A program made the translations under genes and the position numbers. From an uncultured Clostridia bacterium (lineage in GTDB: Bacteria; Bacillota; Clostridia; Christensenellales; Borkfalkiaceae), in assembly GCA_937912025.1 (NCBI GenBank), contig CALDOZ010000010.1, positions 4,710 through 68,709 on the forward strand: a stretch of DNA of 64,000 nucleotides. The letters run 5' to 3'. The notes under the pieces were generated by a model. It was not told the origin of the DNA and did no database searches. It saw nothing but the letters and a program-made list of their open reading frames with translations. Position 1 is the stretch's first letter. The number at the start of each line of letters is the position of its first letter. Positions 1,269-40,667 of the stretch are shown here, one piece after another.

Positions 1269-1766
1269 ATGGTAGTTGATTTTGAAAGTGAAAGAGCCGT
1301 AGAATACGCTTTGAAATATTCTTTAAACGGCAACGATGAATATTATGATTTTACAAATATTGGTGGAGATTGCACCAATTTTGTTTCTCAATGCGTGTAC
1401 GCCAGTAGTGGTGTTATGAATTATACTAAAACGTTTGGCTGGTATTATAGTAGTGTAGGTCTTAGAAGTCCAGCGTGGACGGGTGTTGACGAGTTTTATA
1501 ATTTTATCGTAAACAATGCTAAAAACGGCGGTATAGGTAACGGAAACGGTCCTTTTGGCAAGGTGGTTGACGTTACAAACTCTAAACTTGGCGACGTAGT
1601 TCAACTTGCAAATAATGGTAATTATTTTCATAGCGCAATTATAGTTGGGTTTAACGGAAACGAACCGTTAGTTTGCGCAAGAACGTATAACGTTCGTAAT
1701 TATCCATTATTTAATTATAGTTTTGACAGTTTAAGATGTATTCGTATATTAGGAATAAGAAAATAA
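1269..1766 (+). CDS. Putative amidase-domain protein (Amidase_6-like, papain-fold)
   Basis: 165-aa ORF. It carries a GGDCTNFVSQCVYASSG Cys motif and a later YFHSAIIVG His motif, typical of the putative amidase domain family. No clear SD. Confidence 0.5.
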   Translation: MVVDFESERAVEYALKYSLNGNDEYYDFTNIGGDCTNFVSQCVYASSGVMNYTKTFGWYYSSVGLRSPAWTGVDEFYNFIVNNAKNGGIGNGNGPFGKVVDVTNSKLGDVVQLANNGNYFHSAIIVGFNGNEPLVCARTYNVRNYPLFNYSFDSLRCIRILGIRK

Positions 1767-1786
1767 CTTTTTAATTTGTATAAATA

Positions 1787-1831
1787 TAAAAGCGCTACTT
1801 TTACGTTGAGTAAAGTGTAGCGCTCTTTTTT
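1787..1831. terminator. Bidirectional rho-independent terminator between convergent genes
   Basis: Stem AGCGCTAC (1791-1798) pairs with GTAGCGCT (1817-1824). Flanked by an A-run and a T-run. Confidence 0.75.
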
Positions 1832-1892
1832 ATTGTTTAAAAATGTTAATGTAAAACTTTTTAATAAGGTCTTAATAAATTAATATAAAATT

Positions 1893-2405
1893 TTATGCTC
1901 TTAAAGTGTTATATACGTTATCTATTAAGGTAGTATTTAACGTTCTTCCCGTAATAGTTATACAATAGTTGTAATCAGATGACGGTATTATTAATTGTGT
2001 TTGGTAAAGTGTGGTAGAATATACCGAGTTAACCATGCTAATTTTTGTAACGTCTCTATCAAGTTGCTCAATTGTAACGCTTTGTACGTTAATACCTTGC
2101 GCTGAATACATAGGAGCAAGATTTTCATTAAAGTATTCTTCCGTCATATTTTTATATATGTTAGATTTTTGTTCGTACGTTACCGTGATATTTTCGTTTT
2201 CGTCAGGAGAAGTGATTATAACGATAGAACCGTTGGTAACAGTCCAGTCTTCAGGATACGCAAACGAAACTTCAAAGTCGTTTTCAAATTTCTTATAACC
2301 TTCGGGAATTTTGACTTGATTAAAAACAAAATCGCAAGAAGCCATGCAAAGCATTGAACAGATTAAAATAAGTAAGGTTGTAATTTTTGTTAAGATTTTT
2401 TTCAT
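1893..2405 (-). CDS. Lipoprotein, unknown function
   Basis: Signal peptide plus lipobox (MKKILTKITTLLILICSMLCMAS-C). GGAG SD upstream on the minus strand. Confidence 0.6.
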   Translation of the reverse strand: MKKILTKITTLLILICSMLCMASCDFVFNQVKIPEGYKKFENDFEVSFAYPEDWTVTNGSIVIITSPDENENITVTYEQKSNIYKNMTEEYFNENLAPMYSAQGINVQSVTIEQLDRDVTKISMVNSVYSTTLYQTQLIIPSSDYNYCITITGRTLNTTLIDNVYNTLRA

Positions 2406-2486
2406 TTTTTGTTACTCCATTGTGTGTTATTTGATAGTTATATTGTATAACAATTAAAATAAAAATACAATAGTATGATAAAAAAT

Positions 2487-3299
2487 TTACGTCTTGTTTT
2501 TAAATTTTCCTGGTGGAACACCGTAAAAAGATTTAAAAAGCCTATTAAAATAATAAATATCATCAAAATTAAGTTTGTCGGCAACTTCGCCTATTGTAAA
2601 TTCTCCGCTTTTTATTAGTTCGCTTGCTTTTCGCATTATTATATAATTTTTGTATTTAATTGGCGACATTCCCGTCGCATTATGAAATTTTTGCCTAAAA
2701 CTACTACTTGACATATTGCACATTTTAGCAAGACTATCAACGTTTATTTGTTCTAAATAGTTGTTTTCAATATAAATAATTCCAGCCGTAACGTCGCTAC
2801 GTTGATTTAACGTTTTATTTATAACTTCGCTTGATATTAGCGTTATAATTTCAAGTAAAATTGATTGACATTTCAATTTATACCCAAGTTTTGAATCGTT
2901 ATAAGTTTGAAGTAGCGAGTTGAAAAGTTTATAATACACCTTAAATTTATCGTTTAAAACTAAAGTTAAATTATCAAATAGCAATACTTCTTTTTCGTTT
3001 TGATATAAGTTAAAGTATATAGACGTAGCGCTGTTATTTTCAGTGTCCGTCCAACAACTTTTATACGTTACGTCGGGCGGTAGATATAAAATATCGCCAG
3101 GTTTTGCATATATAACTAAATTGTTGTTTAGTACAAATTTTGCATTTCCGTTTATTATATAATAAAAACGCTGAATGTTATATTGACCTTTTTTTCTAAT
3201 AGTATATTTTTTAATTTTATTATTGGGAGAATAAAAGGCTAAAATATCAACTATTTTGCATTCATTATTTAAAATTTGTTTTAATTTTTCTATATCCAT
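2487..3299 (-). CDS. AraC family transcriptional regulator (cupin sensor plus C-terminal HTH)
   Basis: 270 aa. N-terminal cupin-like segment (PGDILYLPPDVTY) and a C-terminal AraC HTH (SLAKMCNMSSSSFRQKFHNATGMSPIKYKNYIIMRKA...YYFNRLFKSFYGVPPGKF). Divergent from the operon starting at 3462. Confidence 0.85.
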   Translation of the reverse strand: MDIEKLKQILNNECKIVDILAFYSPNNKIKKYTIRKKGQYNIQRFYYIINGNAKFVLNNNLVIYAKPGDILYLPPDVTYKSCWTDTENNSATSIYFNLYQNEKEVLLFDNLTLVLNDKFKVYYKLFNSLLQTYNDSKLGYKLKCQSILLEIITLISSEVINKTLNQRSDVTAGIIYIENNYLEQINVDSLAKMCNMSSSSFRQKFHNATGMSPIKYKNYIIMRKASELIKSGEFTIGEVADKLNFDDIYYFNRLFKSFYGVPPGKFKNKT

Positions 3300-3304
3300 A
3301 ATAA

Positions 3305-3449
3305 AAACCTTAAAAGTGGCAATTCAATTTATAAGCGTTAACCTTAATTATAAAAATAACCTTATTTGTTAAATTGTACAAAAAATATATTATTTTGTCT
3401 ATTGTTTTTAACGCAATTTTATATTAAACTTTAATTACTTAATAAGGTT
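3305..3449. promoter_or_regulatory. AACCTTA repeat set in the araC/operon divergent control region
   Basis: Direct copies of AACCTTA at 3305-3311, 3339-3345 and 3357-3363. One inverted copy (TAAGGTT) at 3443-3449. Confidence 0.3.
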
Positions 3450-3461
3450 AAGGAGTATTTT

Positions 3462-4748
3462 ATGGAAAAATTAAAAATTGGTATAGTTGGTTTTGGGAAT
3501 TATAGTTTTCAATATATAAATATATGGTTAAACCATCCACTTATTGAAAAAGTAGTTGGCGCTGAGTTTTTAGACGATAGACGTAAGCAAGTAGAAGACG
3601 AGTATAAAATTAAAACGTACAAATCGTTTGACGAAATGCTTGAAAACGAGTCAGACCTTAACGCGGTTGCTATTTTCACGGGTAGGCACATGCACGGGCC
3701 TCAAGTTATTAAAGCGCTTAATATGGGTAAAAACGTTTTCTCGGCAGTACCAATGGCGGTTACTGAAGAAGAAATAGTTGAAATCTTGCGTTTGGTTGAA
3801 AAAACTCGCCTTACTTATATGATGGCGGAAACTTGTTATTATTTTCCGTGCGCGGTATGGTGTCGCGAACAATATAAGCAAGGTAAGTTTGGTAAATTCC
3901 AATACGGAGAATCACAATATTATCACGATATTTCAGATATGTTTAGCGCTTTTTACGCGTCTAACGTAAATACCGATAAAAGTTGGAAATGGTTTGCTGG
4001 TATTCCGCCTATGTATTATTCAACTCACTCAACATCAATGCTTTATTCAGTAATTAACGAGTATCCGGTAGAAGTATCGTGTTATGGTATAAGAGATACT
4101 TATAACGACGATATATACGGCGAAGATAAAAACGAGTGGGGCAATCCTTATTCAAATCAAACGTCAATAGTTAGAATGAGTGGTGGTGGCGTTGCAAGAA
4201 TAAACGAATTTAGACGTATTGGTACGACTAAACCGTCGTCGTATTTAAGTAGTTTATACGGCGATTTAGGCGGTTATGAATATAGCGGACAACAACATTT
4301 ATTTTCAAGAAACGTTGAAAACCCAAGAGAATTTTCTACTGAAGACGTTAGCGAACAAGTAAACACTTTTAAGTGGCTTGAAGATAGAAATAAAACGGAT
4401 ATTGATAAATCTCAATTAATTTTTGATTATAAATATCATTGCGGATTTTCGCCTTGTCAAAACTACAACCGTTTGCCTAAAAACTTTTTAACGTTTACAG
4501 AAAAGCAAAAGGAAAATTTTATGCACGGTCATAACGGTTCGCATATTTTATTGGTTGACGATTTTGTTCGCTCTGTTATAACGAAAAAATTACCGCCTGT
4601 TGACCCTTGGTTTGCGGCGTATTGCACGCTTACAGGAATATATGCGCATAAGAGTTCAATGATGGGTGGAGTTCCAGTTAAAATTCCAGACGTGGGACAT
4701 AAACCTGCTGATTGGGATTACATTGATTTTGACGAAATAAAATATTAA
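3462..4748 (+). CDS. Gfo/Idh/MocA family oxidoreductase (long form)
   Basis: AAGGAG SD. N-terminal Rossmann segment KIGIVGFGNY and general Gfo/Idh/MocA layout. 428 aa. Confidence 0.75.
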   Translation: MEKLKIGIVGFGNYSFQYINIWLNHPLIEKVVGAEFLDDRRKQVEDEYKIKTYKSFDEMLENESDLNAVAIFTGRHMHGPQVIKALNMGKNVFSAVPMAVTEEEIVEILRLVEKTRLTYMMAETCYYFPCAVWCREQYKQGKFGKFQYGESQYYHDISDMFSAFYASNVNTDKSWKWFAGIPPMYYSTHSTSMLYSVINEYPVEVSCYGIRDTYNDDIYGEDKNEWGNPYSNQTSIVRMSGGGVARINEFRRIGTTKPSSYLSSLYGDLGGYEYSGQQHLFSRNVENPREFSTEDVSEQVNTFKWLEDRNKTDIDKSQLIFDYKYHCGFSPCQNYNRLPKNFLTFTEKQKENFMHGHNGSHILLVDDFVRSVITKKLPPVDPWFAAYCTLTGIYAHKSSMMGGVPVKIPDVGHKPADWDYIDFDEIKY

Positions 4749-4749
4749 T

Positions 4750-4802
4750 GTTAACTTTGTCCATATAAACAATATGATTTTATATGGACAATTAACTTTT
4801 TA
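4750..4802 (+). terminator. Intra-cluster hairpin plus T-run after the first oxidoreductase gene
   Basis: Perfect 10-bp stem TGTCCATATA (4758-4767) with TATATGGACA (4781-4790). Outer GTTAA/TTAAC pairing. T-run at 4797-4801. Confidence 0.5.
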
Positions 4803-4813
4803 TAAAATATAAT
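4785..4813 (+). promoter_or_regulatory. Candidate sigma-A promoter for a near-leaderless transcript
   Basis: TGGACA (4785-4790), 17-nt spacer, TATAAT (4808-4813). The ATG at 4824 is only 10 nt past the -10, and there is no SD. Confidence 0.4.
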
Positions 4814-4823
4814 GAAATAAAAA

Positions 4824-5594
4824 ATGATAGATAGAATTAGTGTTTGCGTTGATATGATGTTTGCGCCGTCAACGTTTAATGAAAAATTAATTAGGTGCAA
4901 AAACTGTAATTTTAAAACTATTGAGTTTTGGAAATGGTCAAATAAAAATTTAAACGAAATAATTAATAGCAGTTTAAACGTTAGTATTTTTAACCTTGAT
5001 AGTAGTAACGATAAATTGTCTTACGACTTATCTCGCGGGATAATTAACGATGGTAGAGTTGACGATTTTATTTCAGCGCTAAATGAAAGTATTCCCGTAT
5101 ACAAAAAACTAAATGCTAAAGCAATGATTGTATTAATTGGTGAAAATGCTAATTATAGTGAAGAAAATTGTTTAAAGTGTTTATTAAAAGCAAAACCAAT
5201 TTTAGAAAAAGAGAACGTTAATTTAGTTATTGAACCATTAAACGCTACTGACCGCGTAGGGTATAGTATGCCGTATGTAGCCCCCGTTTTTGATTTAGTT
5301 AAAAAAGTAAATAGTAAACACGTTAAAGTTTTATACGATATTTATCATCAAAACGTTACGGGCGACTTTGACTTAGATAACGTTATTAAAAATTTAGAGT
5401 ATATCGGTCATTTTCACGTTGCCGACGCGCCTGGTAGACACGAACCGGGTAGCGCTAAAATTGATTACGTTAAAATTATAAATACCATTATAAAATTTGG
5501 GTATAAAAATTATATAGGTTTAGAATATCGCGCGACTAAGCGTGATGAAGATACTTTTGAATTTCTAAATGAATTAGTAAAATTTAAGGAGTAA
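4824..5594 (+). CDS. Hydroxypyruvate isomerase-like / xylose isomerase-like TIM-barrel protein
   Basis: 256 aa. Hyi-family features (N-terminal S-V-C-V-D-M-M-F, IEFWKW, LVIEPLN, GHFHVADAPGRHEPG, IGLEY). No SD. A TATAAT ends 10 nt upstream of the ATG. Confidence 0.7.
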   Translation: MIDRISVCVDMMFAPSTFNEKLIRCKNCNFKTIEFWKWSNKNLNEIINSSLNVSIFNLDSSNDKLSYDLSRGIINDGRVDDFISALNESIPVYKKLNAKAMIVLIGENANYSEENCLKCLLKAKPILEKENVNLVIEPLNATDRVGYSMPYVAPVFDLVKKVNSKHVKVLYDIYHQNVTGDFDLDNVIKNLEYIGHFHVADAPGRHEPGSAKIDYVKIINTIIKFGYKNYIGLEYRATKRDEDTFEFLNELVKFKE

Positions 5595-5596
5595 TT

Positions 5597-6673
5597 ATGT
5601 TTAAAGTATGTATTATCAGTTGTGGTATGATTGCCAACTCGGCGCATATACCAGCGTATAAAAGATTTAGTGATGATTTTGAAATTGTTGCAGTTTGCGA
5701 TATTAATGAAAAATCCGCAAAAGAAACTGCTCAAAATCACGGAATTTCTAAATACTATTTAGATGCTAAAACTATGCTTGACGAAGTTAAACCAGACCTT
5801 GTTTCTATATGCGTTCCTAACTGTTTTCATAAAGAATACGCTATAATGGCGCTTAAAGCAGGCGCAAACGTTTTATGCGAAAAACCACTTGCTTTTACTT
5901 ATAGCGACGCTGTAGAAATGTTTAACGTTGCTAAAGAATGTGGTAAAATTTTAATGGCTTGCCAAACAATGCGTTTTACTCCTGATAGAATTGCCGCTAA
6001 AAAATACATGCAAGCGGAAGGTGTTGGCGACGTTTATTACGGCGAAGTTGCAAGAATACGTCGTAGAGGTATACCATTTTGGGGCGCTTTCCATATTGAA
6101 AAGATTAGTAAAGGCGGAGCGTTTGTTGATATAGGCGTTCATATGCTTGACGCGCTTATCTACCTTATGGATAACCCTGAAGTTTTAAGCGTTACTGCAA
6201 CGACTATGCAAAACCATAAAGACGAAATAGGCTCTTTAGAAGGTAGTGGAGCGTTTACGGGCAACGTTTCAAACGCGAGAAAGTTTAATCCAGACGAAAT
6301 GGACGTTGAAGATTTTTCTTGCGGACTTATTAAGTTTAAAAACGGCGCAAATATCACTTTTAAAGTTGCTTGGGCGGCAAATATGCCAGAATATAACGAT
6401 ATTAAAATCGTAGGCAAAAAAGGTGGACTTTATTTACCTGAAGGTAAAATCTATTTTGGTGAAAAGGGTGAAAAAACTCTTGAAACAACGCCGTGTCCTT
6501 ACGATACGCCTTTTTCTGGTCACGTTTATATAATTGATAACTTTAGAAAGGTTTTAAAAGGCGAAGAGCAACCTATAGTTAAGCCTGAAGAAACTATTAA
6601 CGTATCTAAAATAATAGAAATGTTCTATAAATCGGCAAAACTCAAAAGAGAGGTTTATTTTGATGAAAATTAA
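5597..6673 (+). CDS. Gfo/Idh/MocA family oxidoreductase
   Basis: AAGGAG SD. CIISCGMIANSAHIPAY Rossmann start and the EKPLA motif (CEKPLAFT). 358 aa. Confidence 0.85.
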   Translation: MFKVCIISCGMIANSAHIPAYKRFSDDFEIVAVCDINEKSAKETAQNHGISKYYLDAKTMLDEVKPDLVSICVPNCFHKEYAIMALKAGANVLCEKPLAFTYSDAVEMFNVAKECGKILMACQTMRFTPDRIAAKKYMQAEGVGDVYYGEVARIRRRGIPFWGAFHIEKISKGGAFVDIGVHMLDALIYLMDNPEVLSVTATTMQNHKDEIGSLEGSGAFTGNVSNARKFNPDEMDVEDFSCGLIKFKNGANITFKVAWAANMPEYNDIKIVGKKGGLYLPEGKIYFGEKGEKTLETTPCPYDTPFSGHVYIIDNFRKVLKGEEQPIVKPEETINVSKIIEMFYKSAKLKREVYFDEN

Positions 6674-7766
6674 AAGCGTAATTATTGGTTTTTCTCATAT
6701 GCACGTTAACGAAGTTGCGTTATATATTAGCGAAAGGGAAGATATGGAACTTGTTGCCGTTGCCGATGCTGATAGCGGTAACGAGCAAATAGACGGCTAT
6801 CGTTATACTCAAAAATGGAATTTACAAAACGTTAAAGAAAAATACTGCTCTAACGTTTATGAAGATTTTAAAGTTATGCTTGACGAAGTTAAGCCTGACG
6901 TTGCGTTTATTTTAACTGAAAACTCGTTAAAACCGTATATAGTTGAAGAATGCGCTAAACGTAAAATTGACGTTTGTATTGAAAAACCTATGGCGGTTAG
7001 TTTAAGCGAGGCTAAAAAAATTAAAGAAAGCGTTGAAAAATACGGTATTACAGCGCTCGTTAACTGGCCTGTTGCGTGGAGACCTTACGTTCATAAAATG
7101 AAAAAGGCGCTTGATAGCGGTGTGGTAGGGAAGCCTATTAAACTTCGCTATATAAACGGTCATACAGGACCGCTTGGTAAAGGCGCTAAACATCGTGGCG
7201 TAAGCGAAAACGCCGAAGAAATGACTGACGAAGTTAGAAGTAAAACGTGGTGGCATAAGTCTGAGTACGGTGGTGGCGTGTATCTTGATATAGCGTGCTA
7301 CGGTTGTTATTTTGCCGATTGGTTTTTAACGGGTAACGCTAACTCGGTTGTGAGCGTAGGTAAAAATTTAAATACTCCTTTTGGAGATACGGACGACAAC
7401 TTTGGCGCTATTATTAGTTACGATAAGCAAATGGCGGTTATTGAAGGAACGTGGACTACTCCGCGCGTTGTTATTCCGTCAGGACCAATGCTTCTATGTG
7501 AAAACGGCGTAATTACTTGTACGGGTGGCGCTGAAAATATGCCAGACGTTAAAGTTTACGATATTTATGGTAACGAGATTGTTATTGACGACGTAAATAT
7601 GCACGTTAAATACAAAAATATGCCTAATATGTACGCCGAATTAAAAAACAATAATCAAGAAGTTTTCGAGATGGTTACTCTTGAAAAAAATATGGAAATT
7701 ATGGCGTTACTTGACGCTTGTATTGAAAGTTCAAAAAACGGTAAAAGCGAAAAAGTTTTAAAATAA
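6663..7766 (+). CDS. Gfo/Idh/MocA family oxidoreductase
   Basis: I prefer the ATG at 6663 (AGAGAGG SD 8 nt upstream) over the TTG at 6660. Overlaps the preceding gene by 11 nt. Carries the CIEKPMA motif. Confidence 0.75.
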   Translation: MKIKSVIIGFSHMHVNEVALYISEREDMELVAVADADSGNEQIDGYRYTQKWNLQNVKEKYCSNVYEDFKVMLDEVKPDVAFILTENSLKPYIVEECAKRKIDVCIEKPMAVSLSEAKKIKESVEKYGITALVNWPVAWRPYVHKMKKALDSGVVGKPIKLRYINGHTGPLGKGAKHRGVSENAEEMTDEVRSKTWWHKSEYGGGVYLDIACYGCYFADWFLTGNANSVVSVGKNLNTPFGDTDDNFGAIISYDKQMAVIEGTWTTPRVVIPSGPMLLCENGVITCTGGAENMPDVKVYDIYGNEIVIDDVNMHVKYKNMPNMYAELKNNNQEVFEMVTLEKNMEIMALLDACIESSKNGKSEKVLK

Positions 7767-7786: not shown

Positions 7787-9997
7787 ATGCTTACCTATAA
7801 TGATAGACTAAAAATTTTACGTCAAACTAAAATCGAGCATACTTTAGCAAAGAAAATACAAAACGGTTATACTGATCTTGACGATTTTGGTACTGTGCCA
7901 ATATCAGAAGGTTACGAAGTTATGCCGTGGTATAATAGCGCTAACGGAAGTTTTTACGGTTACGACGGAATGAGCGAAAACTTTTGTAGGGTAATTGATG
8001 CTCACGAACCGTACGTTGATGCTATGGAAATGCTTTGCGGTAGATGGCGAGATATGCTCGTTAACTATCGTGGCGACGTTCACTACGCACCTAATTGGTT
8101 AAAAAATAAACCCGAAGTAATGAAAGTGATGAGTAGCGCTGATACTCAGTTTAGTAAGCGTTGGGATGAGCAACGTTTTCCTTACGATCATTTGAAACCG
8201 TTGCAGAAAAAATATAATATTCAAACAGGTATTGACGGTGATGCTCATCTTGCTTGCGATTACTCTATCGGTTTTGAGTTAGGTTTTGGTGGACTACTTG
8301 AAAAAATTCGTAAATATCGCGATATTAACGTAAAAAATAAAGATTTTTATAATGCCGAAGAAAAGGTTGTTCTTGCTATAATTAGGTTTATAGATAGGCA
8401 TATCTTAAAAATTGAAGAAATGCTAAAAAGCGAAACAAGACCTGAAATTGTTACGTCGCTACAAGATATGCTAACTGCTTGTAAAAACGTAAGACTTAAT
8501 CCTCCTAAAACTTTTCACGAAGTGTGTCAATGGACGGCGTTTTTTAATTGCGCGTCAAGAATATATACTCGTGACGGCGCAGGTTTTCAACTTGACGCGC
8601 TTTTATATCCGTATTACCTTCGCGATAAAAAGGAAGGTATTTTAGATGATGAAAAGGCTAAATTTTTAATAGCGAATTTACTTTTAATTGATCCCCATTA
8701 TTATCAAATTTCTGGTGTTGACGAGTTTGATAACGATTTAACCAACGAGTTGTCTTATTTAATTTTAGATGCGGCGGACAGTATAAATATTGCTTGCAAC
8801 TTGACTGTTCGCGTACATGATAATTGTGACGCTAAGTTCTTTGATAAAGCCGTTTATTACCTTATTAAAAACAAAAACGGTTGGCCTAGATTTTGTAACG
8901 ATAAGGCGCTTTCAGAAGGTTATATGAAAAACGGTGTTGATAAAAAGACGGCGCGCGAACGCATTGCCGTAGGTTGTAATTGGATGTGTGTTCCGGGTAA
9001 GGAATTCCCTATGAACGATACCGTTAAAATAAACGTTGCAAAGGTTTTTTACGAAGCGTTTATGGAAATGAAAGACGAGCCCAATAAAAGTACGCAATTA
9101 TTATATGAGATTTTTGAAAAGCATCTTAAAATTGCAATTGACGTTACAGCGCAAGGTGTTAACTTGCATATTGATAATCAATGGCAAGTAACTCCTGAAC
9201 TCATCATGAATTTAATGATGAAAAACACTATTGAATTAGGTCAAGATATTTCTAAATGCGCCGAACTTTACACGGTTGGCGTGGACGGAGTTGGTCTTGC
9301 CGTTGTTGCTGATAGTTTTGCGGCGCTTAAAGTTAAGGTTGAAAATGAAAAAGTTCTTGATTGGAAAACTGTTTACGAGCAAATTGAAAACAATTTTGAA
9401 AACGAGCGTGTAAGACTTATTTTAAATTCAACTCCTAAATATTGTAGTGGAAATAGCGTTGCCGACGAATACGCTTTAAAATTAACTCAAACGTGGGTTA
9501 AAAACGTTAAAAATCAAAAAATGCCAAAAGGAAGACAGTTAATCCCGGGCTGGTTTAGTTGGGCAAGGTCGGTTGAATACGGCAAAACTGTCGGCGCTAC
9601 TCCTAACGGTCGCTTTGCAGGCACTCCCGTTTCACACGGCGCAAACCCAAACCCGCGTTTTAGAATAGACGGCGCTGCAACAGCGCAATCAAATGGTATA
9701 GCGTCAGTCCAATGTGGTTATGGTAATACCGCGCCTTTGCAAATTGAGTTTGACCCGCAAGTTGCCGAAGAAAACGGCGTTGCTATTATCGGCGCGTTTA
9801 TAAAAGGTCATTTTGCTAAAGGTGGAACGCTGATAAATATAAACGTTCTTGACGGTGATAAACTTTTAAAAGCGCATGAAAACCCAGATTTATATCCCGA
9901 TTTAGTCGTTAGAGTTACAGGATTTACCGCTTATTTTGCAACTTTATCTCCTGAATTTAGACAACTTGTCGTTGATAGATTTATTAAAGGTATGTAA
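7787..9997 (+). CDS. Glycyl radical enzyme, PFL-like fold, unknown substrate
   Basis: 736 aa with a GAGGT SD. C-terminal glycyl radical fingerprint VVRVTGFTAYFATLSPEFRQLVVDR (Gly712, nt 9920-9922). Candidate thiyl loop AVGCNWMCVPG (Cys397, nt 8975-8977). The Cys-to-Gly spacing of 315 aa equals that between Cys419 and Gly734 of E. coli PflB. Confidence 0.85.
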   Translation: MLTYNDRLKILRQTKIEHTLAKKIQNGYTDLDDFGTVPISEGYEVMPWYNSANGSFYGYDGMSENFCRVIDAHEPYVDAMEMLCGRWRDMLVNYRGDVHYAPNWLKNKPEVMKVMSSADTQFSKRWDEQRFPYDHLKPLQKKYNIQTGIDGDAHLACDYSIGFELGFGGLLEKIRKYRDINVKNKDFYNAEEKVVLAIIRFIDRHILKIEEMLKSETRPEIVTSLQDMLTACKNVRLNPPKTFHEVCQWTAFFNCASRIYTRDGAGFQLDALLYPYYLRDKKEGILDDEKAKFLIANLLLIDPHYYQISGVDEFDNDLTNELSYLILDAADSINIACNLTVRVHDNCDAKFFDKAVYYLIKNKNGWPRFCNDKALSEGYMKNGVDKKTARERIAVGCNWMCVPGKEFPMNDTVKINVAKVFYEAFMEMKDEPNKSTQLLYEIFEKHLKIAIDVTAQGVNLHIDNQWQVTPELIMNLMMKNTIELGQDISKCAELYTVGVDGVGLAVVADSFAALKVKVENEKVLDWKTVYEQIENNFENERVRLILNSTPKYCSGNSVADEYALKLTQTWVKNVKNQKMPKGRQLIPGWFSWARSVEYGKTVGATPNGRFAGTPVSHGANPNPRFRIDGAATAQSNGIASVQCGYGNTAPLQIEFDPQVAEENGVAIIGAFIKGHFAKGGTLININVLDGDKLLKAHENPDLYPDLVVRVTGFTAYFATLSPEFRQLVVDRFIKGM

Positions 9998-10310: not shown

Positions 10311-11342
10311 ATGAAAATGACTTTTAGATGGTATGGCGAAAACGACTGTATTCCTTTAAACTACATCAAACAAATTCAAGGAATGACGGGTGTTGTTACC
10401 GCTGTTTACGACGAGCCTGTTGGTGCTGTTTGGCCACTCGAAAAACTTTTAAAACTCAAAAAACTTGCAAACGACGCTGGTTTAGAGATGGAAGTTATCG
10501 AGTCTGTTCCCGTTCATGAAGATATTAAACTTGGTAAGCCTACGCGTGATAAATATATTGAAGCGTACAAGCAAAATATTATAAACTGCGGTAAAGCGGG
10601 TGTTAAATGTATTTGCTATAACTTTATGCCTGTTTTCGACTGGCTTAGAACAAACCTTTATTTTAAGCATCCAGACGGTGCGACTTCGCTTTCATACTCT
10701 CACGAAGAACTTTTAAAATGCGATCCTCATAACCTTCATTTGCCAGGTTGGGACGAAAGTTATACTCAAGAAGAGCTTAACGGTCTTTTAGACGAGTATA
10801 AAAATATGACTCATGAAAAGTTGTTTGAAAATTTAGTGTATTTCTTAAACGCTATTATGCCAGCGTGTGACGAGGCTGACGTTGACATGGCTATTCACCC
10901 AGACGATCCACCATGGGATATGTTTAATCTTCCGCGTATTATTTGTAAAGAAAGTGATTACGATAGACTTTTTGCCGCTGTTCCTAACAAGCATAACGGT
11001 ATTACTTTCTGTACGGGTAGTTTAGGCGCGGGTAGATTTAACGACCTTCCTAAAATGGCTGGAATGTACGCTGACCGTATTTATTTTGCTCACCTTCGTC
11101 AATTAAAATATACCGGCGACGTTGATTTTTACGAAAACGGACATATGACGTACGCTGGTAATATTGATATGTACGGTATTGTAAAAGCGCTTGAAGATAA
11201 TGGATTTAAAGGTTATCTTCGTCCTGACCACGGCAGAAACGTTTGGGGAGAAGACGCTAAGCCTGGGTATGGTTTATATGATAGAGCAATGGGTGCTTGC
11301 TATCTTGCAGGCTTATTTGAAGCAGTTAAAAAAAATAAATAA
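10311..11342 (+). CDS. uxuA: Mannonate dehydratase
   Basis: The N-terminus MKMTFRWYGENDCIPLNYIKQIQGMTGVV is the classic UxuA start. 343 aa. GAGG SD. Confidence 0.9.
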   Translation: MKMTFRWYGENDCIPLNYIKQIQGMTGVVTAVYDEPVGAVWPLEKLLKLKKLANDAGLEMEVIESVPVHEDIKLGKPTRDKYIEAYKQNIINCGKAGVKCICYNFMPVFDWLRTNLYFKHPDGATSLSYSHEELLKCDPHNLHLPGWDESYTQEELNGLLDEYKNMTHEKLFENLVYFLNAIMPACDEADVDMAIHPDDPPWDMFNLPRIICKESDYDRLFAAVPNKHNGITFCTGSLGAGRFNDLPKMAGMYADRIYFAHLRQLKYTGDVDFYENGHMTYAGNIDMYGIVKALEDNGFKGYLRPDHGRNVWGEDAKPGYGLYDRAMGACYLAGLFEAVKKNK

Positions 11343-37141: not shown

Positions 37142-37867
37142 ATGGAAGGTAAAATTCATTCCGTTTTTTCAGGCGGTACGGTTGACGGTCCGGGAATACG
37201 TTTCGTTGTCTTTATGCAAGGTTGTCCGTTAAGGTGCAAGTATTGTCATAATCCTGACAGTTGGCTCGTTCAAGACGGGGAAGTTCGCACAGTTAGCGAC
37301 TTAACTAATGAAATTATTAAATACCGCAATTATTTTGGCGAAAAAGGCGGGTTGACGGTTTCTGGCGGAGAACCGCTCGTTCAAATTGATTTTGTTATTG
37401 AACTTTTAAAAACGGTAAAGCGTTATGGAATAAATACCGCGGTTGATACGTCTGGTTACTTGTTTAAAATTGACGATGAACATACGTTAAAAAAATATCA
37501 AGAACTTGATAAGTATTGCGACCTTTATTTGTTAGATATTAAACATATTGACGATGATAAACATAAGCAACTTACCGGTGTTACAAATAAAAACACTTTA
37601 AACTATGCTAAATGGCTTAGCGATAGGGGAAGTAAAGTTTGGATAAGGCACGTTTTAGTTCCAAATTATACTGATAATGACGAAGACCTTATAAAACTTT
37701 CAAACTTTATTAAAACGCTTAAAAACGTTGAAAAAGTAGAAGTTTTGCCATATCATACTATGGGTATTGTCAAATATAAAAATTTAGGGTACGACTATCC
37801 GCTTAAAGACGTTCCTGCTCCTACTAAAGAAAGGGTACTTAACGCAAAGAAAATTTTAGGTGTATAA
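37142..37867 (+). CDS. pflA: Pyruvate formate-lyase activating enzyme (radical SAM)
   Basis: I prefer the ATG at 37142 (GGAGG SD at 37132-37136) over the GTG at 37130. GKIHSVFSGGTVDGPGIRFVVFMQGCPLRCKYCHNPD is the canonical PflA N-terminus with a Cx3Cx2C motif. Confidence 0.93.
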   Translation: MEGKIHSVFSGGTVDGPGIRFVVFMQGCPLRCKYCHNPDSWLVQDGEVRTVSDLTNEIIKYRNYFGEKGGLTVSGGEPLVQIDFVIELLKTVKRYGINTAVDTSGYLFKIDDEHTLKKYQELDKYCDLYLLDIKHIDDDKHKQLTGVTNKNTLNYAKWLSDRGSKVWIRHVLVPNYTDNDEDLIKLSNFIKTLKNVEKVEVLPYHTMGIVKYKNLGYDYPLKDVPAPTKERVLNAKKILGV

Positions 37868-38187
37868 TGTTAAACGATAATAATTACAAAGAAAATCTTA
37901 AAGGGTTACAAGTTTTAGAAGTTAGTGGCGAAGGTTGCGCTAATTGCATTTCGCTTATGCCAATGCTTTACAGTGTTGTTAGCGCTCGTAACGACGTTGA
38001 ACTCGTCCATTTTGAACTTGACGAAAATTCTAATAAATTCGCTAGCGAATATAACATTGATAGAGTTCCTACCGTTTTACTTTTAGACGATGGAAAAGAA
38101 ATTGCAAGGGTAGTCGGTTTTCAGCCCGAAGAAGTGTTCGAAATTTGGCTCGATTATAAAATTGACGAGTATAAAAAGTCAAAATAA
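37867..38187 (+). CDS. Thioredoxin-fold protein (C-A-N-C motif)
   Basis: 106 aa. EVSGEGCANCISL CxxC motif and a RVPTV cis-Pro-like segment. The start overlaps the pflA stop (TAATG). AGGTG SD. Confidence 0.7.
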   Translation: MLNDNNYKENLKGLQVLEVSGEGCANCISLMPMLYSVVSARNDVELVHFELDENSNKFASEYNIDRVPTVLLLDDGKEIARVVGFQPEEVFEIWLDYKIDEYKKSK

Positions 38188-38256: not shown

Positions 38257-38306
38257 TGTTGCAAATGCAACACTTATTTGAAAAATAATATGTTATTATT
38301 TATATA
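38257..38306 (+). promoter_or_regulatory. Candidate pflB promoter with an upstream palindrome
   Basis: Palindrome TGTTGCA-AA-TGCAACA (38257-38272), just upstream of TTGAAA (38278-38283), 17-nt spacer, TATATA (38301-38306). Confidence 0.4.
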
Positions 38307-38340: not shown

Positions 38341-40374
38341 ATGAAAAATTACAAAGGTTGGGAAGGTTTTATTCCCGGCAAATGGTCTGATGATGAAGTT
38401 AACGTAAGAGATTTCATTCAAAAAAACTACGCTCCATACGAAGGTGATGATAGTTTCCTTGCTCCTGCAACCGAAGCAACTAAACAACTTTGGAAGGAAG
38501 TAATGGAATTAAGCGCTAAAGAAAGAGCAAACAACGGCGTTCTTGACGCTGACACAAAAGTTGTATCAACTCTTACAAGTCACGGTCCTGGATATATTAA
38601 TAAAGACCTTGAAACAATCGTTGGTCTTCAAACTGATGCTCCGTTCAAACGTTCGCTTCAACCGTTTGGTGGTATTAAAATGTCATCGCAAGCGCTTGAA
38701 ATGTATGGATATCAAGTTGATCCGTTGGTTACTGAAATTTTCACTAAATATCGTAAAACTCATAACGACGGTGTATTTGATGCTTATACTCCAGAAATGC
38801 GCGCATGCCGTTCTTCACACATCTTAACAGGTCTTCCTGATACTTACGGTCGTGGTAGAATTATCGGTGACTATAGACGTGTTGCTCTTTACGGTGTAGA
38901 TTATCTTATTAAGAAAAAAGAAGAAGATAAACTTCTTATTTGCGGAGAAATGACTCCTGATAAGATTAGAAACAGAGAAGAAATTTCTGAACAAATTAAG
39001 GCATTAAAAGGTCTTAAAGAAATGGCTAAAATTTACGGTTGTGACATTAGCGAGCCAGCAACTACTGCTAAAGAAGCAATTCAAGCGGTATACTTCGGTT
39101 ACCTTGGCGCTGTAAAAGACCAAAACGGCGCGGCAATGTCTATCGGTCGTACTTCTACTTTCCTTGATATTTATATTGAAAGAGACCTTAAAAACGGCGT
39201 TATTACCGAAAGCGAAGCGCAAGAATATATGGATCACTTCATTATGAAACTTCGTATGGTAAGATTTATGAGAATTCAATCTTACAACGAACTTTTCTCA
39301 GGTGATCCTACTTGGGTTACTGAAGCGATTGGTGGTATGGGTGTTGACGGTAGAACTTTAGTTACTAAAAACTCTTTCCGTGTTCTTCACACTCTTATTA
39401 ACCTTGGTCCTGCTCCAGAACCAAACCTTACGGTTTTATGGTCTAAAAATCTTCCTGCAAATTTCAAAAAATTCTGCGCTAACGTTTCTATCAAAACGTC
39501 TGCTATCCAATATGAAAGTGATGACCTTATGAGACCTGAAATGGGTGACGATTACGGTATTGCTTGTTGCGTATCTTGTATGAAGATTGGTAAAGACATG
39601 CAATTCTTCGGCGCTCGCGCTAACCTTGCAAAGTGCTTACTTTACGCTATTAACGGTGGTAAAGACGAATTAATGAAGGATAAAGTTACAGGCAAACCAA
39701 TGCAAGTTGGTCCTAAGTTTGAAGCCATTACTTCTAACGAAGCTCTTGACTTTAACGAAGTTATGGATAAATATACTCAAATGATGGAATGGCTTGCCGG
39801 TGTATACGTTAACGCTCTTAACCTTATCCACTACATGCACGATAAATACGCTTACGAAGCAATTGAAATGGCTCTTCATGATTCTAATGTTAGAAGATTC
39901 TTTGCTACCGGTGTTGCAGGTCTTTCTTGCGTTGCAGACTCACTTTCGGCTATTAAATATGCTAAAGTATACCCAATTAGAAATGAAGACGGTATCGTTG
40001 TTGACTTCAAGATTGAAGGTGAATTCCCTAAATACGGCAATAATGACGATAGAGTTGACGAACTTGCAGTTACTCTTGTTAAAAAGTTCATGAATATGAT
40101 TAGAACTCACTATACTTATAGAGATTCTGTTCCAACAATGTCAATTCTTACTATTACTTCAAACGTAGTTTACGGTAAAAAGACTGGTAATACTCCTGAT
40201 GGTAGACGCGCAGGCGAACCTCTTGCTCCTGGTGCAAATCCAATGCACGGTAGAGATACTCACGGCGCTCTTGCTTCACTTGAATCAGTTGCAAAATTAC
40301 CATACGAATATTCTAGAGACGGTATTTCTAATACGTTCTCAATTACACCTGAATCATTAGGTAAAGACGATTAA
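38341..40374 (+). CDS. pflB: Formate C-acetyltransferase (pyruvate formate-lyase), large catalytic subunit lacking the glycyl-radical segment
   Basis: 677 aa. Strongly PflB-like throughout. Active-site IACCVSCM (Cys409/Cys410, nt 39565-39570). Ends ...[13 protein letters not shown], just before the position where the Gly-radical domain begins in one-piece PFLs. Confidence 0.93.
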
Positions 40375-40402
40375 TATAATAATATATAATAGGAGGTTTA
40401 TT

Positions 40403-40636
40403 ATGTCTCAAAAAGTTGATAATTTAGTTAATATGTTAGATGCTTATTGCGCTAATGGTGGACATCACCTTAACGTAAACGTTTTCAATCGTGATACGCT
40501 TTTAGACGCTCAAAAACATCCTGAAAAATACCCACAACTCACTATTAGAGTTTCTGGTTACGCTGTAAACTTTATTAAGCTTACAAAAGAACAACAGGAT
40601 GACGTAATTTCTCGTACAATTCACGAGTCGATGTAA
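40403..40636 (+). CDS. Stand-alone glycyl-radical subunit of PFL (GrcA-like, 77 aa)
   Basis: Own AGGAGG SD 7 nt upstream, and a different reading frame from pfl[55 protein letters not shown] is the PFL C-terminal radical domain (Gly52, nt 40556-40558). Confidence 0.9.
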
Positions 40637-40637
40637 T

Positions 40638-40667
40638 AAAAAAGGGGTGTATTTGCACCCCTTTTTC
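40638..40667 (+). terminator. Rho-independent terminator after the PFL small subunit
   Basis: GC-rich stem AAAAGGGGTG with CACCCCTTTT, 6-nt loop, and a T-run. Confidence 0.88.

Follow-up and report, generated by a model that had tools for sequence, protein, structure and literature searches.

A pyruvate formate-lyase locus with its glycyl radical domain encoded as a separate small protein in an uncultured Clostridia bacterium

Gene organization of the locus

No glycyl radical enzyme (GRE) is more widespread than pyruvate formate-lyase (PFL), a central node of anaerobic carbon flow. In a stretch of 64,000 nucleotides (nt) on contig CALDOZ010000010.1 from an uncultured, gut-type Clostridia bacterium (hereafter the window, to whose positions coordinates refer unless another locus is named), PFL is encoded in two pieces, a catalytic body and a small open reading frame (ORF) that carries the glycine-radical domain. 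They follow the genes for a PFL-activating enzyme and a thioredoxin-fold protein (Table 1), giving the operon order pflA, thioredoxin-like gene, body, small ORF. The frame of pflA, the first gene, opens at GTG 37130, and its likely start is ATG 37142. The small ORF lies in frame +1 relative to the body (40403 − 38341 = 2062), and inside the spacer the frame of the body runs into the stops TAA, TAA, and TAG. A preliminary description of this DNA, made from the letters alone, had given the coordinates, the Cys-Cys site, the 28-nt spacer with its AGGAGG, the frame change, and the 77-amino-acid (aa) ORF with Gly52, all of which proved exact.

Table 1. Features of the split PFL operon in the window
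Feature	Position	Strand	Properties
pflA, PFL-activating radical-SAM (S-adenosylmethionine) enzyme	37142..37867	+	TIGR02493, 307.6 bits (cutoff, 231.75); Radical_SAM and Fer4_12 domains
Thioredoxin-fold gene	37867..38187	+	106 aa; CANC motif; Pfam Thioredoxin, 39.7 bits; between pflA and body
PFL catalytic body	38341..40374	+	677 aa; ends ...SLGKDD, then TAA; without radical glycine
Active-site Cys-Cys codons, TGT TGC	39565..39570	+	C409/C410, read directly; motif IACCVSCM; equivalent to E. coli C418/C419
Intercistronic spacer	40375..40402	+	28 nt; A+T-rich
AGGAGG Shine-Dalgarno sequence	40391-40396	+	6 nt ahead of ATG 40403
Small-subunit ORF	40403..40636	+	77 aa; detached glycine-radical domain
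Gly52 codon, predicted radical glycine in RVSGYAV	40556..40558	+	Equivalent to E. coli Gly734
Intrinsic terminator, hairpin and U run	40639..40666	+	Minimum free energy, −17.3 kcal/mol; z-score, −5.26; 0/200 shuffles fold as well

The body scores 1083.3 bits against TIGR01255, the formate C-acetyltransferase equivalog model (cutoff, 994.2), over profile positions 2 to 663 of 744, and it also matches the Pfam family PFL-like. Its alignment with Escherichia coli PFL (1h16; 991 bits) covers residues 9 to 678, so that the final body residue corresponds to D678, and the small ORF, from its residue 7 at N684, aligns with residues 684 to 759. The junction is therefore colinear with the one-piece enzyme, nothing being lost or duplicated except an extra Met, and the two pieces sum to 754 aa, as had been proposed earlier. 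A single Pfam Gly_radical domain is cut by the break, with profile positions 2 to 48 at the C terminus of the body and 52 to 106 in the small ORF.

The Cys-Cys pair and the pyruvate-site residues are found in a ten-stranded barrel, as judged from the sequence and from the joined model described below, and C409/C410, W325, F423, and R426 are invariant in an alignment of nine joined split PFLs. A cognate radical-SAM activase, PflA, is encoded nearby. The radical glycine motif RVxGY, which in PFL stands at the C terminus of the same polypeptide, is found here on the separate 77-aa ORF. This ORF matches NCBIfam model NF038360 (GrcA3) at 160.8 bits, a narrow margin over the cutoff of 158, with residues 2 to 77 on profile positions 3 to 78 of 78. 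Against the GrcA/YfiD model TIGR04365 it scores 95.5 bits, below the cutoff of 170, and only residues 15 to 77 align, on profile positions 64 to 126; its score against GrcA2 (NF008341) is likewise below the cutoff (104.5 versus 145 bits).

Conservation of the split across species

The best 120 homologues of the body, drawn from many independent assemblies, share its truncation point; they are 677 to 678 aa long except for one of 700 aa. With few exceptions, the 120 best matches to the small ORF are free-standing proteins of 76 to 80 aa. Two scans of contigs representing one genome per species gave at least 588 and at least 536 confirmed relatives, and 160 loci were kept and classified. Among loci with an upstream PFL body, 64 of 65 in one scan and 71 of 71 in the other combine a body without the radical segment with a separate small ORF. 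After four doubly fetched loci were dropped, there were 131 distinct species-level split loci and one fused locus (L045, 3-1013, + strand). The small ORFs of the split loci measure 76 to 84 aa and are independently initiated. Recurrence of the architecture in 131 independent species-level loci excludes a chance origin.

According to the record titles, the hosts of split loci include Christensenellaceae-type and Scatosoma metagenome-assembled genomes (MAGs), as well as Lachnospiraceae, Ruminococcus, Erysipelotrichaceae, Coriobacteriia, Gastranaerophilales, and one Sphaerochaetaceae MAG. Cultured strains are also represented, namely, Lancefieldella rimae ATCC 49626, Thomasclavelia spiroformis, Lachnotalea sp., and Fannyhessea vaginae DSM 15829. 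Across these lineages, from Christensenellales-like to Sphaerochaetaceae, the junction of stop, Shine-Dalgarno (SD) sequence, and ATG is kept in kind, which answers the earlier proposal that its conservation be checked in relatives. A representative search with the body at 50% clustering was uninformative on split versus fused forms, since both share clusters.

A bare stop codon, with nothing more, might be put down to a sequencing or assembly artifact or to a recent pseudogene. This explanation is barely credible here and is effectively refuted: identical body (P0121) and small (P0002) proteins are present in other public assemblies, the exact stop position is common to 120 independent homologues, and both parts are under purifying selection. 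Nor do close relatives all carry a one-piece gene, the finding that was to have told against an evolved split; the nearest relatives of the body (86 to 97% identity) are all split, and one-piece relatives appear only from 76 to 80%.

Some members of the small-gene family occur apart from PFL. In 24 classified loci (L002, L028, L078, and 21 others), the small gene has no PFL body within 3.5 to 4 kb. In L002 (3436-4234) a rubrerythrin gene ends 28 nt upstream of it and sufB is close by, a setting of oxidative stress, and in L028 it stands beside a Crp-family regulator. A further unusual arrangement is seen in a Candidatus Ornithomonoglobus MAG (L057), where two PFL-body genes lie head to head (2-1678, − strand, and 1950-3941, + strand). 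The minus-strand body runs off the contig end, and a small ORF, overlapping the body stop by 4 nt, comes after the plus-strand copy only.

Independent translation of, and selection on, the small ORF

Of the small ORFs at 81 loci, 80 begin with ATG, and 65 are preceded by an SD sequence of at least 5 nt, usually at a spacing of 6 to 10 nt. Body and small ORF are separated by −4 to 479 nt, and the frame offsets 0, 1, and 2 are found 20, 21, and 25 times. Such variable gaps and even offsets point to independent initiation and rule out a conserved frameshift or read-through. Programmed recoding, by which a frameshift or stop read-through would restore a single polypeptide of 750 aa, could draw on the adjacency of the two ORFs and their colinearity with one-piece PFL. 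It is nevertheless highly improbable, given the TAA, TAA, and TAG that close the body frame within the spacer of the window and gaps and offsets across which no single recoding mechanism could be conserved; what is conserved instead is a strong SD sequence and an ATG.

Eighteen 77-aa orthologues of the small ORF have a median proportion of nonsynonymous differences (pN) of 0.11, against a proportion of synonymous differences (pS) saturated at 0.85, and the ratio of the corresponding rates (dN/dS) is about 0.06 where estimable. Judged by these comparisons, the small ORF is under strong purifying selection. Among the 81 small ORFs the motif RVSGYAVNF is nearly invariant, and the protein is near-invariant throughout, from VDNLV..LD.Y on, the N-terminal helix included. 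The view put forward in the preliminary description, of an evolved two-subunit enzyme and not a decaying pseudogene, is thus upheld by the stop shared in the best 120 homologues, the 131 split loci, and the excess of pS over pN.

Fold of the joined pieces

The two pieces were modeled as one joined chain of 754 aa from an alignment enriched with one-piece and more distant homologues. The model has a mean predicted local distance difference test score (pLDDT) of 93.8 and a predicted template modeling score (pTM) of 0.93, and it superimposes on E. coli PFL (2pfl_A) with template modeling (TM) scores of 0.97/0.96 and a root mean square deviation of 1.2 Å. An initial joined model, built from a shallow, near-redundant, block-diagonal alignment, had a pLDDT of 43.9 and was discarded. 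In the accepted model the break sits in a short loop between helices 670 to 673 and 678 to 694, and the small subunit is composed, in order, of a helix, a barrel strand, a helix, the glycine hairpin, and the C-terminal helix. The model shows that the predicted fold is complete once the pieces are joined, which speaks to their compatibility and not to their association.

Two split architectures and lability of the split state

The split loci follow two designs. The window belongs to a tail-less type (T1), in which the body ends ...LGK(D/E)(D/E) and the operon runs pflA, thioredoxin-like gene, body, small ORF. In the second type (T2), the body continues 11 to 51 residues past the break, and the operon runs body, small ORF, pflA. 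T2 tails share the conserved motif (D/E)xVFxGDLDI, and Cys motifs often come after it. Examples occur in L019-L080 and L082-L161 (for instance, L029 at 3657-3698 and L170 at about 3560-3725), and the sequences read (D/E)xVFxGDLDI(D/E), then GCCE, CxxxxC...P(T/N)L(F)EGLD, or, in Coriobacteriia, DCACEAD. In one Gastranaerophilales locus (L047) the small ORF itself ends GNSCGC. A metal clamp formed by Cys-rich tails and Cys-rich ends of the small subunit was considered and set aside; only L047 has both, and the idea is unsupported as a general feature.

A profile search with joined sequences retrieved many one-piece PFLs of 748 to 754 aa with 76 to 80% identity to the window, and the T2 forms (66 to 72% identity) are less similar to the window than these one-piece forms are. 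The one-piece junctions are colinear with the split break, e.g., SLGKDDISTRADNLV, and their linkers at the break are short and variable (KDANSRCV, KDDISTRA, KEERV, and ESAVEKA, in proteins P0391-P0510). A neighbor-joining tree of the body region, a simple distance method, was computed with 100 bootstraps. T1 and one-piece forms make up one clade in 100 of 100 replicates, with neither T1 nor one-piece forms monophyletic in any of them; T2 is monophyletic in 79 of 100. Because neither T1 nor one-piece forms are monophyletic, the state must have changed at least twice within the clade of the window. Judged from this tree, the pattern indicates repeated fission, or fission followed by re-fusion, at the break loop, the direction being left open by neighbor joining.

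The thioredoxin-like gene follows the split state within this clade. Every T1 locus with sufficient upstream sequence (17 of 17) has it between pflA and the body, and the motifs CAxC and G(F/Y)QPEEIL..W are kept in the T1 operons. Both it and the small ORF are absent from six of six one-piece close relatives examined, where pflA is followed directly by pflB, and the gene was not found in L082-L168, which comprise T2 and one-piece loci. Since the counts are not phylogenetically independent, the association is a lead that makes the gene a candidate accessory to tail-less split operons.

These relationships bear on how the split arose and was kept. In a neutral gene fission, a break at a surface loop would be tolerated without being selected, and the two pieces would form a stable, obligate complex that behaves as one-piece PFL does, with no benefit for exchange or repair. 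The interconversion of split and one-piece states among close relatives, with at least two flips among sequences 76 to 87% identical in a clade recovered in every replicate, is equally compatible with near-neutral fission. The colinear junctions, split versus SLGKDDISTRADNLV, and the position of the break in a loop of the model also favor it. Against it stand the retention of the split over very deep divergences, spanning several phyla and an all-split tailed clade (79% bootstrap); the features that covary with the state, namely, the thioredoxin-like gene in 17/17 tail-less split but 0/6 one-piece loci and the conserved tails of the other clade; and the extra unlinked copies of the small gene, one of them behind rubrerythrin. 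Neutral fission is thus a serious possibility, to be held tentatively.

Other features of the operon and the window

The operon ends at the terminator that follows the small ORF. The hairpin of this terminator was missed by the terminator scan and confirmed by folding, and no terminator element was found between the body and the small ORF. A promoter scan returned 17 sites versus 12.2 ± 4.1 expected, which is background level, and no promoter was assigned. The thioredoxin-fold gene (37867-38187) scores under every NCBIfam thioredoxin cutoff. In the 153-nt gap between this gene and the body lies a near-perfect inverted repeat, TGTTGCAAATGCAACA (38257-38272, + strand), which was flagged by the terminator scan and could equally be an operator site.

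A second GRE (7787-9997, + strand) is a one-piece protein of 736 aa whose Gly_radical domain is complete. This protein is of the PFL2/dehydratase type, with only 29% identity to the PFL body, and it falls under every NCBIfam cutoff, the best being that of the PFL2-3 subfamily (269.5 versus 678.2 bits). It adjoins a GFO/IDH/MocA oxidoreductase and a mannonate dehydratase (neighbors at 6660-7766 and 10311-11342), and because of these neighbors it may act on a sugar derivative. No other PFL was found inside the 64-kb window.

A probable natively heteromeric PFL

The gene structure and its conservation, the purifying selection, the independent initiation signals, and the completeness of the joined fold argue that this locus very probably encodes a natively heteromeric PFL; physical association of the pieces, activation on the small subunit, and activity are inferred from them. 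pflA, the thioredoxin-like gene, the body, and the small ORF would then probably form one transcription unit ending at the terminator. The body would constitute the PFL barrel with its Cys-Cys site but without the final strand, the glycine loop, and the helix at the C terminus, and the small ORF, translated from its own SD sequence and ATG, would supply exactly these missing elements. The N-terminal amphipathic helix of the small subunit probably docks onto the body. PflA would abstract a hydrogen from Gly52 of the small subunit, and the glycine loop would then lie beside Cys410/Cys409, catalysis proceeding as in one-piece PFL (pyruvate + CoA → acetyl-CoA + formate).

Several points weigh against this interpretation. 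For this organism the 8.7-kDa product, the complex, and the Gly52 radical are predictions made from sequence. The structural model is an artificial single chain whose alignment contained one-piece homologues, and it can suggest only compatibility. One-piece forms are nested among split ones; splitting is therefore not required and may bring no advantage. The unlinked small genes imply that family members may also serve as unlinked spare parts. A second, one-piece PFL may be encoded elsewhere in the genome, the view here being that of a 64-kb window. Finally, a truncated E. coli body bound YfiD weakly, and tight binding is not to be assumed (PMC8683613).

The last of these considerations but one can be pressed further, by taking the small ORF as a GrcA/YfiD-type spare part for a one-piece PFL encoded elsewhere, with the truncated body inactive or otherwise employed. 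The NCBI family name "autonomous glycyl radical cofactor GrcA3" suits this idea, as do the copies unlinked to any PFL and an inspection that covered the window and not the whole genome. It is improbable all the same. The truncated body scores above the PFL equivalog cutoff and keeps C409/C410, R426, F423, and W325; it is conserved at 66 to 97% identity across more than 130 species, always beside the small gene and pflA. The small protein begins exactly where the body ends, without the overlap or redundancy of a GrcA/PFL pair, and the sole other GRE in the window is the distant protein of the PFL2/dehydratase type (29% identical).

If the enzyme is natively heteromeric, the advantage of detachment is a matter of speculation: the free domain might be activated without the domain flip that one-piece PFL requires, or a piece of 77 residues might be cheaply replaced after oxygen cleavage. 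A rationale of exchange and repair is plausible, with near-neutral fission as the serious alternative to it. In its most developed form, the detached domain would be a mobile, exchangeable radical cofactor that is activated by PflA while free, docked through its helix, and replaced from a pool after oxygen cleavage, with the aid of lineage-specific helpers. The pool might be topped up in some genomes by unlinked copies in oxidative-stress operons, such as that with rubrerythrin (L002), and the helpers might be the CAxC thioredoxin-like protein in tail-less operons and, in the other clade, the tails of the body, which are acidic or rich in Cys. This complete picture is rather unlikely to hold.

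Implications

How an activase gains access to a glycine buried in the PFL barrel, and how cells respond to oxygen cleavage at that residue, are long-standing puzzles. A separate 8.7-kDa radical domain lets activation, binding, exchange, and damage be studied piece by piece. The GrcA "spare part" idea would also gain a counterpart that is obligate, present in many anaerobes of the gut, mouth, and vagina, among them Fannyhessea vaginae, an organism in which PFL has been proposed as a drug target. There are consequences for annotation, too. Under the present labels, "formate C-acetyltransferase" for the bodies and "GrcA" for the small genes, split PFLs can be misjudged in metabolic reconstructions, by pseudogene callers, and by homology filters built to demand an RVSG motif at the C terminus.

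By comparison of sequences, the split arrangement is not special to this genome; it is a variant, and a widespread one, of a known system. It is also only partly new, since the GrcA3 model and the Protein Data Bank (PDB) entries 38la and 38lb exist and these proteins are apparently already under structural study. The value of the present findings is tempered accordingly: curators (GrcA3) and structural biologists (38la and 38lb) are evidently acquainted with these proteins. What looks new here is that split and one-piece forms are intermingled, that a thioredoxin-like gene accompanies the tail-less split operon, that bodies of the second clade have conserved tails, and that some small genes are unlinked.

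Comparison with known systems

The closest precedent is the pair of E. coli PflB and GrcA (YfiD), together with phage T4 Y06I, in which a stand-alone RVSGY protein is homologous to the PFL C terminus (PMC8683613, PMC13450708). As is predicted for the small protein here, GrcA is activated by the PFL-activating enzyme and makes the active site complete in a PFL body without its own radical loop (PMC8683613, PMC13450708). The partners differ. That of E. coli GrcA is a full-length PFL after oxygen cleavage, whereas the adjacent partner in the window is genetically truncated, and because of this the small protein would be the only source of the radical domain. The proteins differ as well: E. coli GrcA has 127 aa, with a disordered N terminus of about 60 aa that is needed for binding, and the small protein of 77 aa lacks this region and starts with the helix equivalent to PFL 679 to 694. 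Its alignment to 6owr starts at chain residue 67. The match to NF038360, "autonomous glycyl radical cofactor GrcA3," is end to end, and homologues are annotated GrcA in NCBI records. The name, the sole basis of this comparison, implies a spare part and is silent on an obligate subunit of a truncated PFL.

An engineered counterpart exists in E. coli, where truncated PFL, tPFL(1-695), combined with YfiD is, once activated, as active as the wild type (Andorfer et al. 2021, PMC8683613). This pair is artificial and cut 17 residues further downstream, and it shows weak binding and poor activation. The helix at 679 to 694, carried on the natural small piece, may supply the affinity that tPFL and YfiD lack.

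Among cultured species, F. vaginae DSM 15829 (L170) has a body of 718 aa (1569-3725), a small ORF of 80 aa (3768-4010), and pflA (4035-4919). In a transcriptome study of this species, grcA and pflB fall together, ranking first and third among the down-regulated genes listed (−17.96-fold and −14.31-fold; PMC11979175), so that the two genes are co-regulated. The species secretes formate, and the amount drops by about 90% in the presence of 1 mM hypophosphite, an inhibitor of PFL (PMC12208373). These data lend indirect support to activity of a split PFL; a second PFL in that genome is possible.

Two chains in the PDB sequence set, both named "Formate acetyltransferase," show the truncated form. 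38la_A, from another species, ends ...SLGKED at the same break and scores 1133 bits to the window body, and 38lb_A has a tail of the Coriobacteriia type, its C terminus being 100% identical to that of F. vaginae DSM 15829 PflB. No GrcA3-like chain was found in this set. Both entries are absent from a fold library of entries released up to 2026-04-08 and are for that reason probably later releases. Literature searches found no paper associated with 38la or 38lb, none mentioning GrcA3, and none on a natively split, bipartite, or two-component PFL; broader searches turned up only work on GrcA/YfiD. A GRE review of June 2026 treats YfiD/GrcA solely as a means of repairing full-length PFL cleaved by oxygen (PMC13450708).

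Multisubunit organization is itself familiar among GREs, as in benzylsuccinate synthase (alpha-beta-gamma) and 4-hydroxyphenylacetate decarboxylase, which combine a large catalytic subunit with small ones. In these enzymes the radical glycine lies on the large subunit, and the small subunits are unrelated Fe-S or regulatory proteins (PMC13450708). In the split PFL of the window, in contrast, it is the radical domain itself that forms the predicted small subunit.

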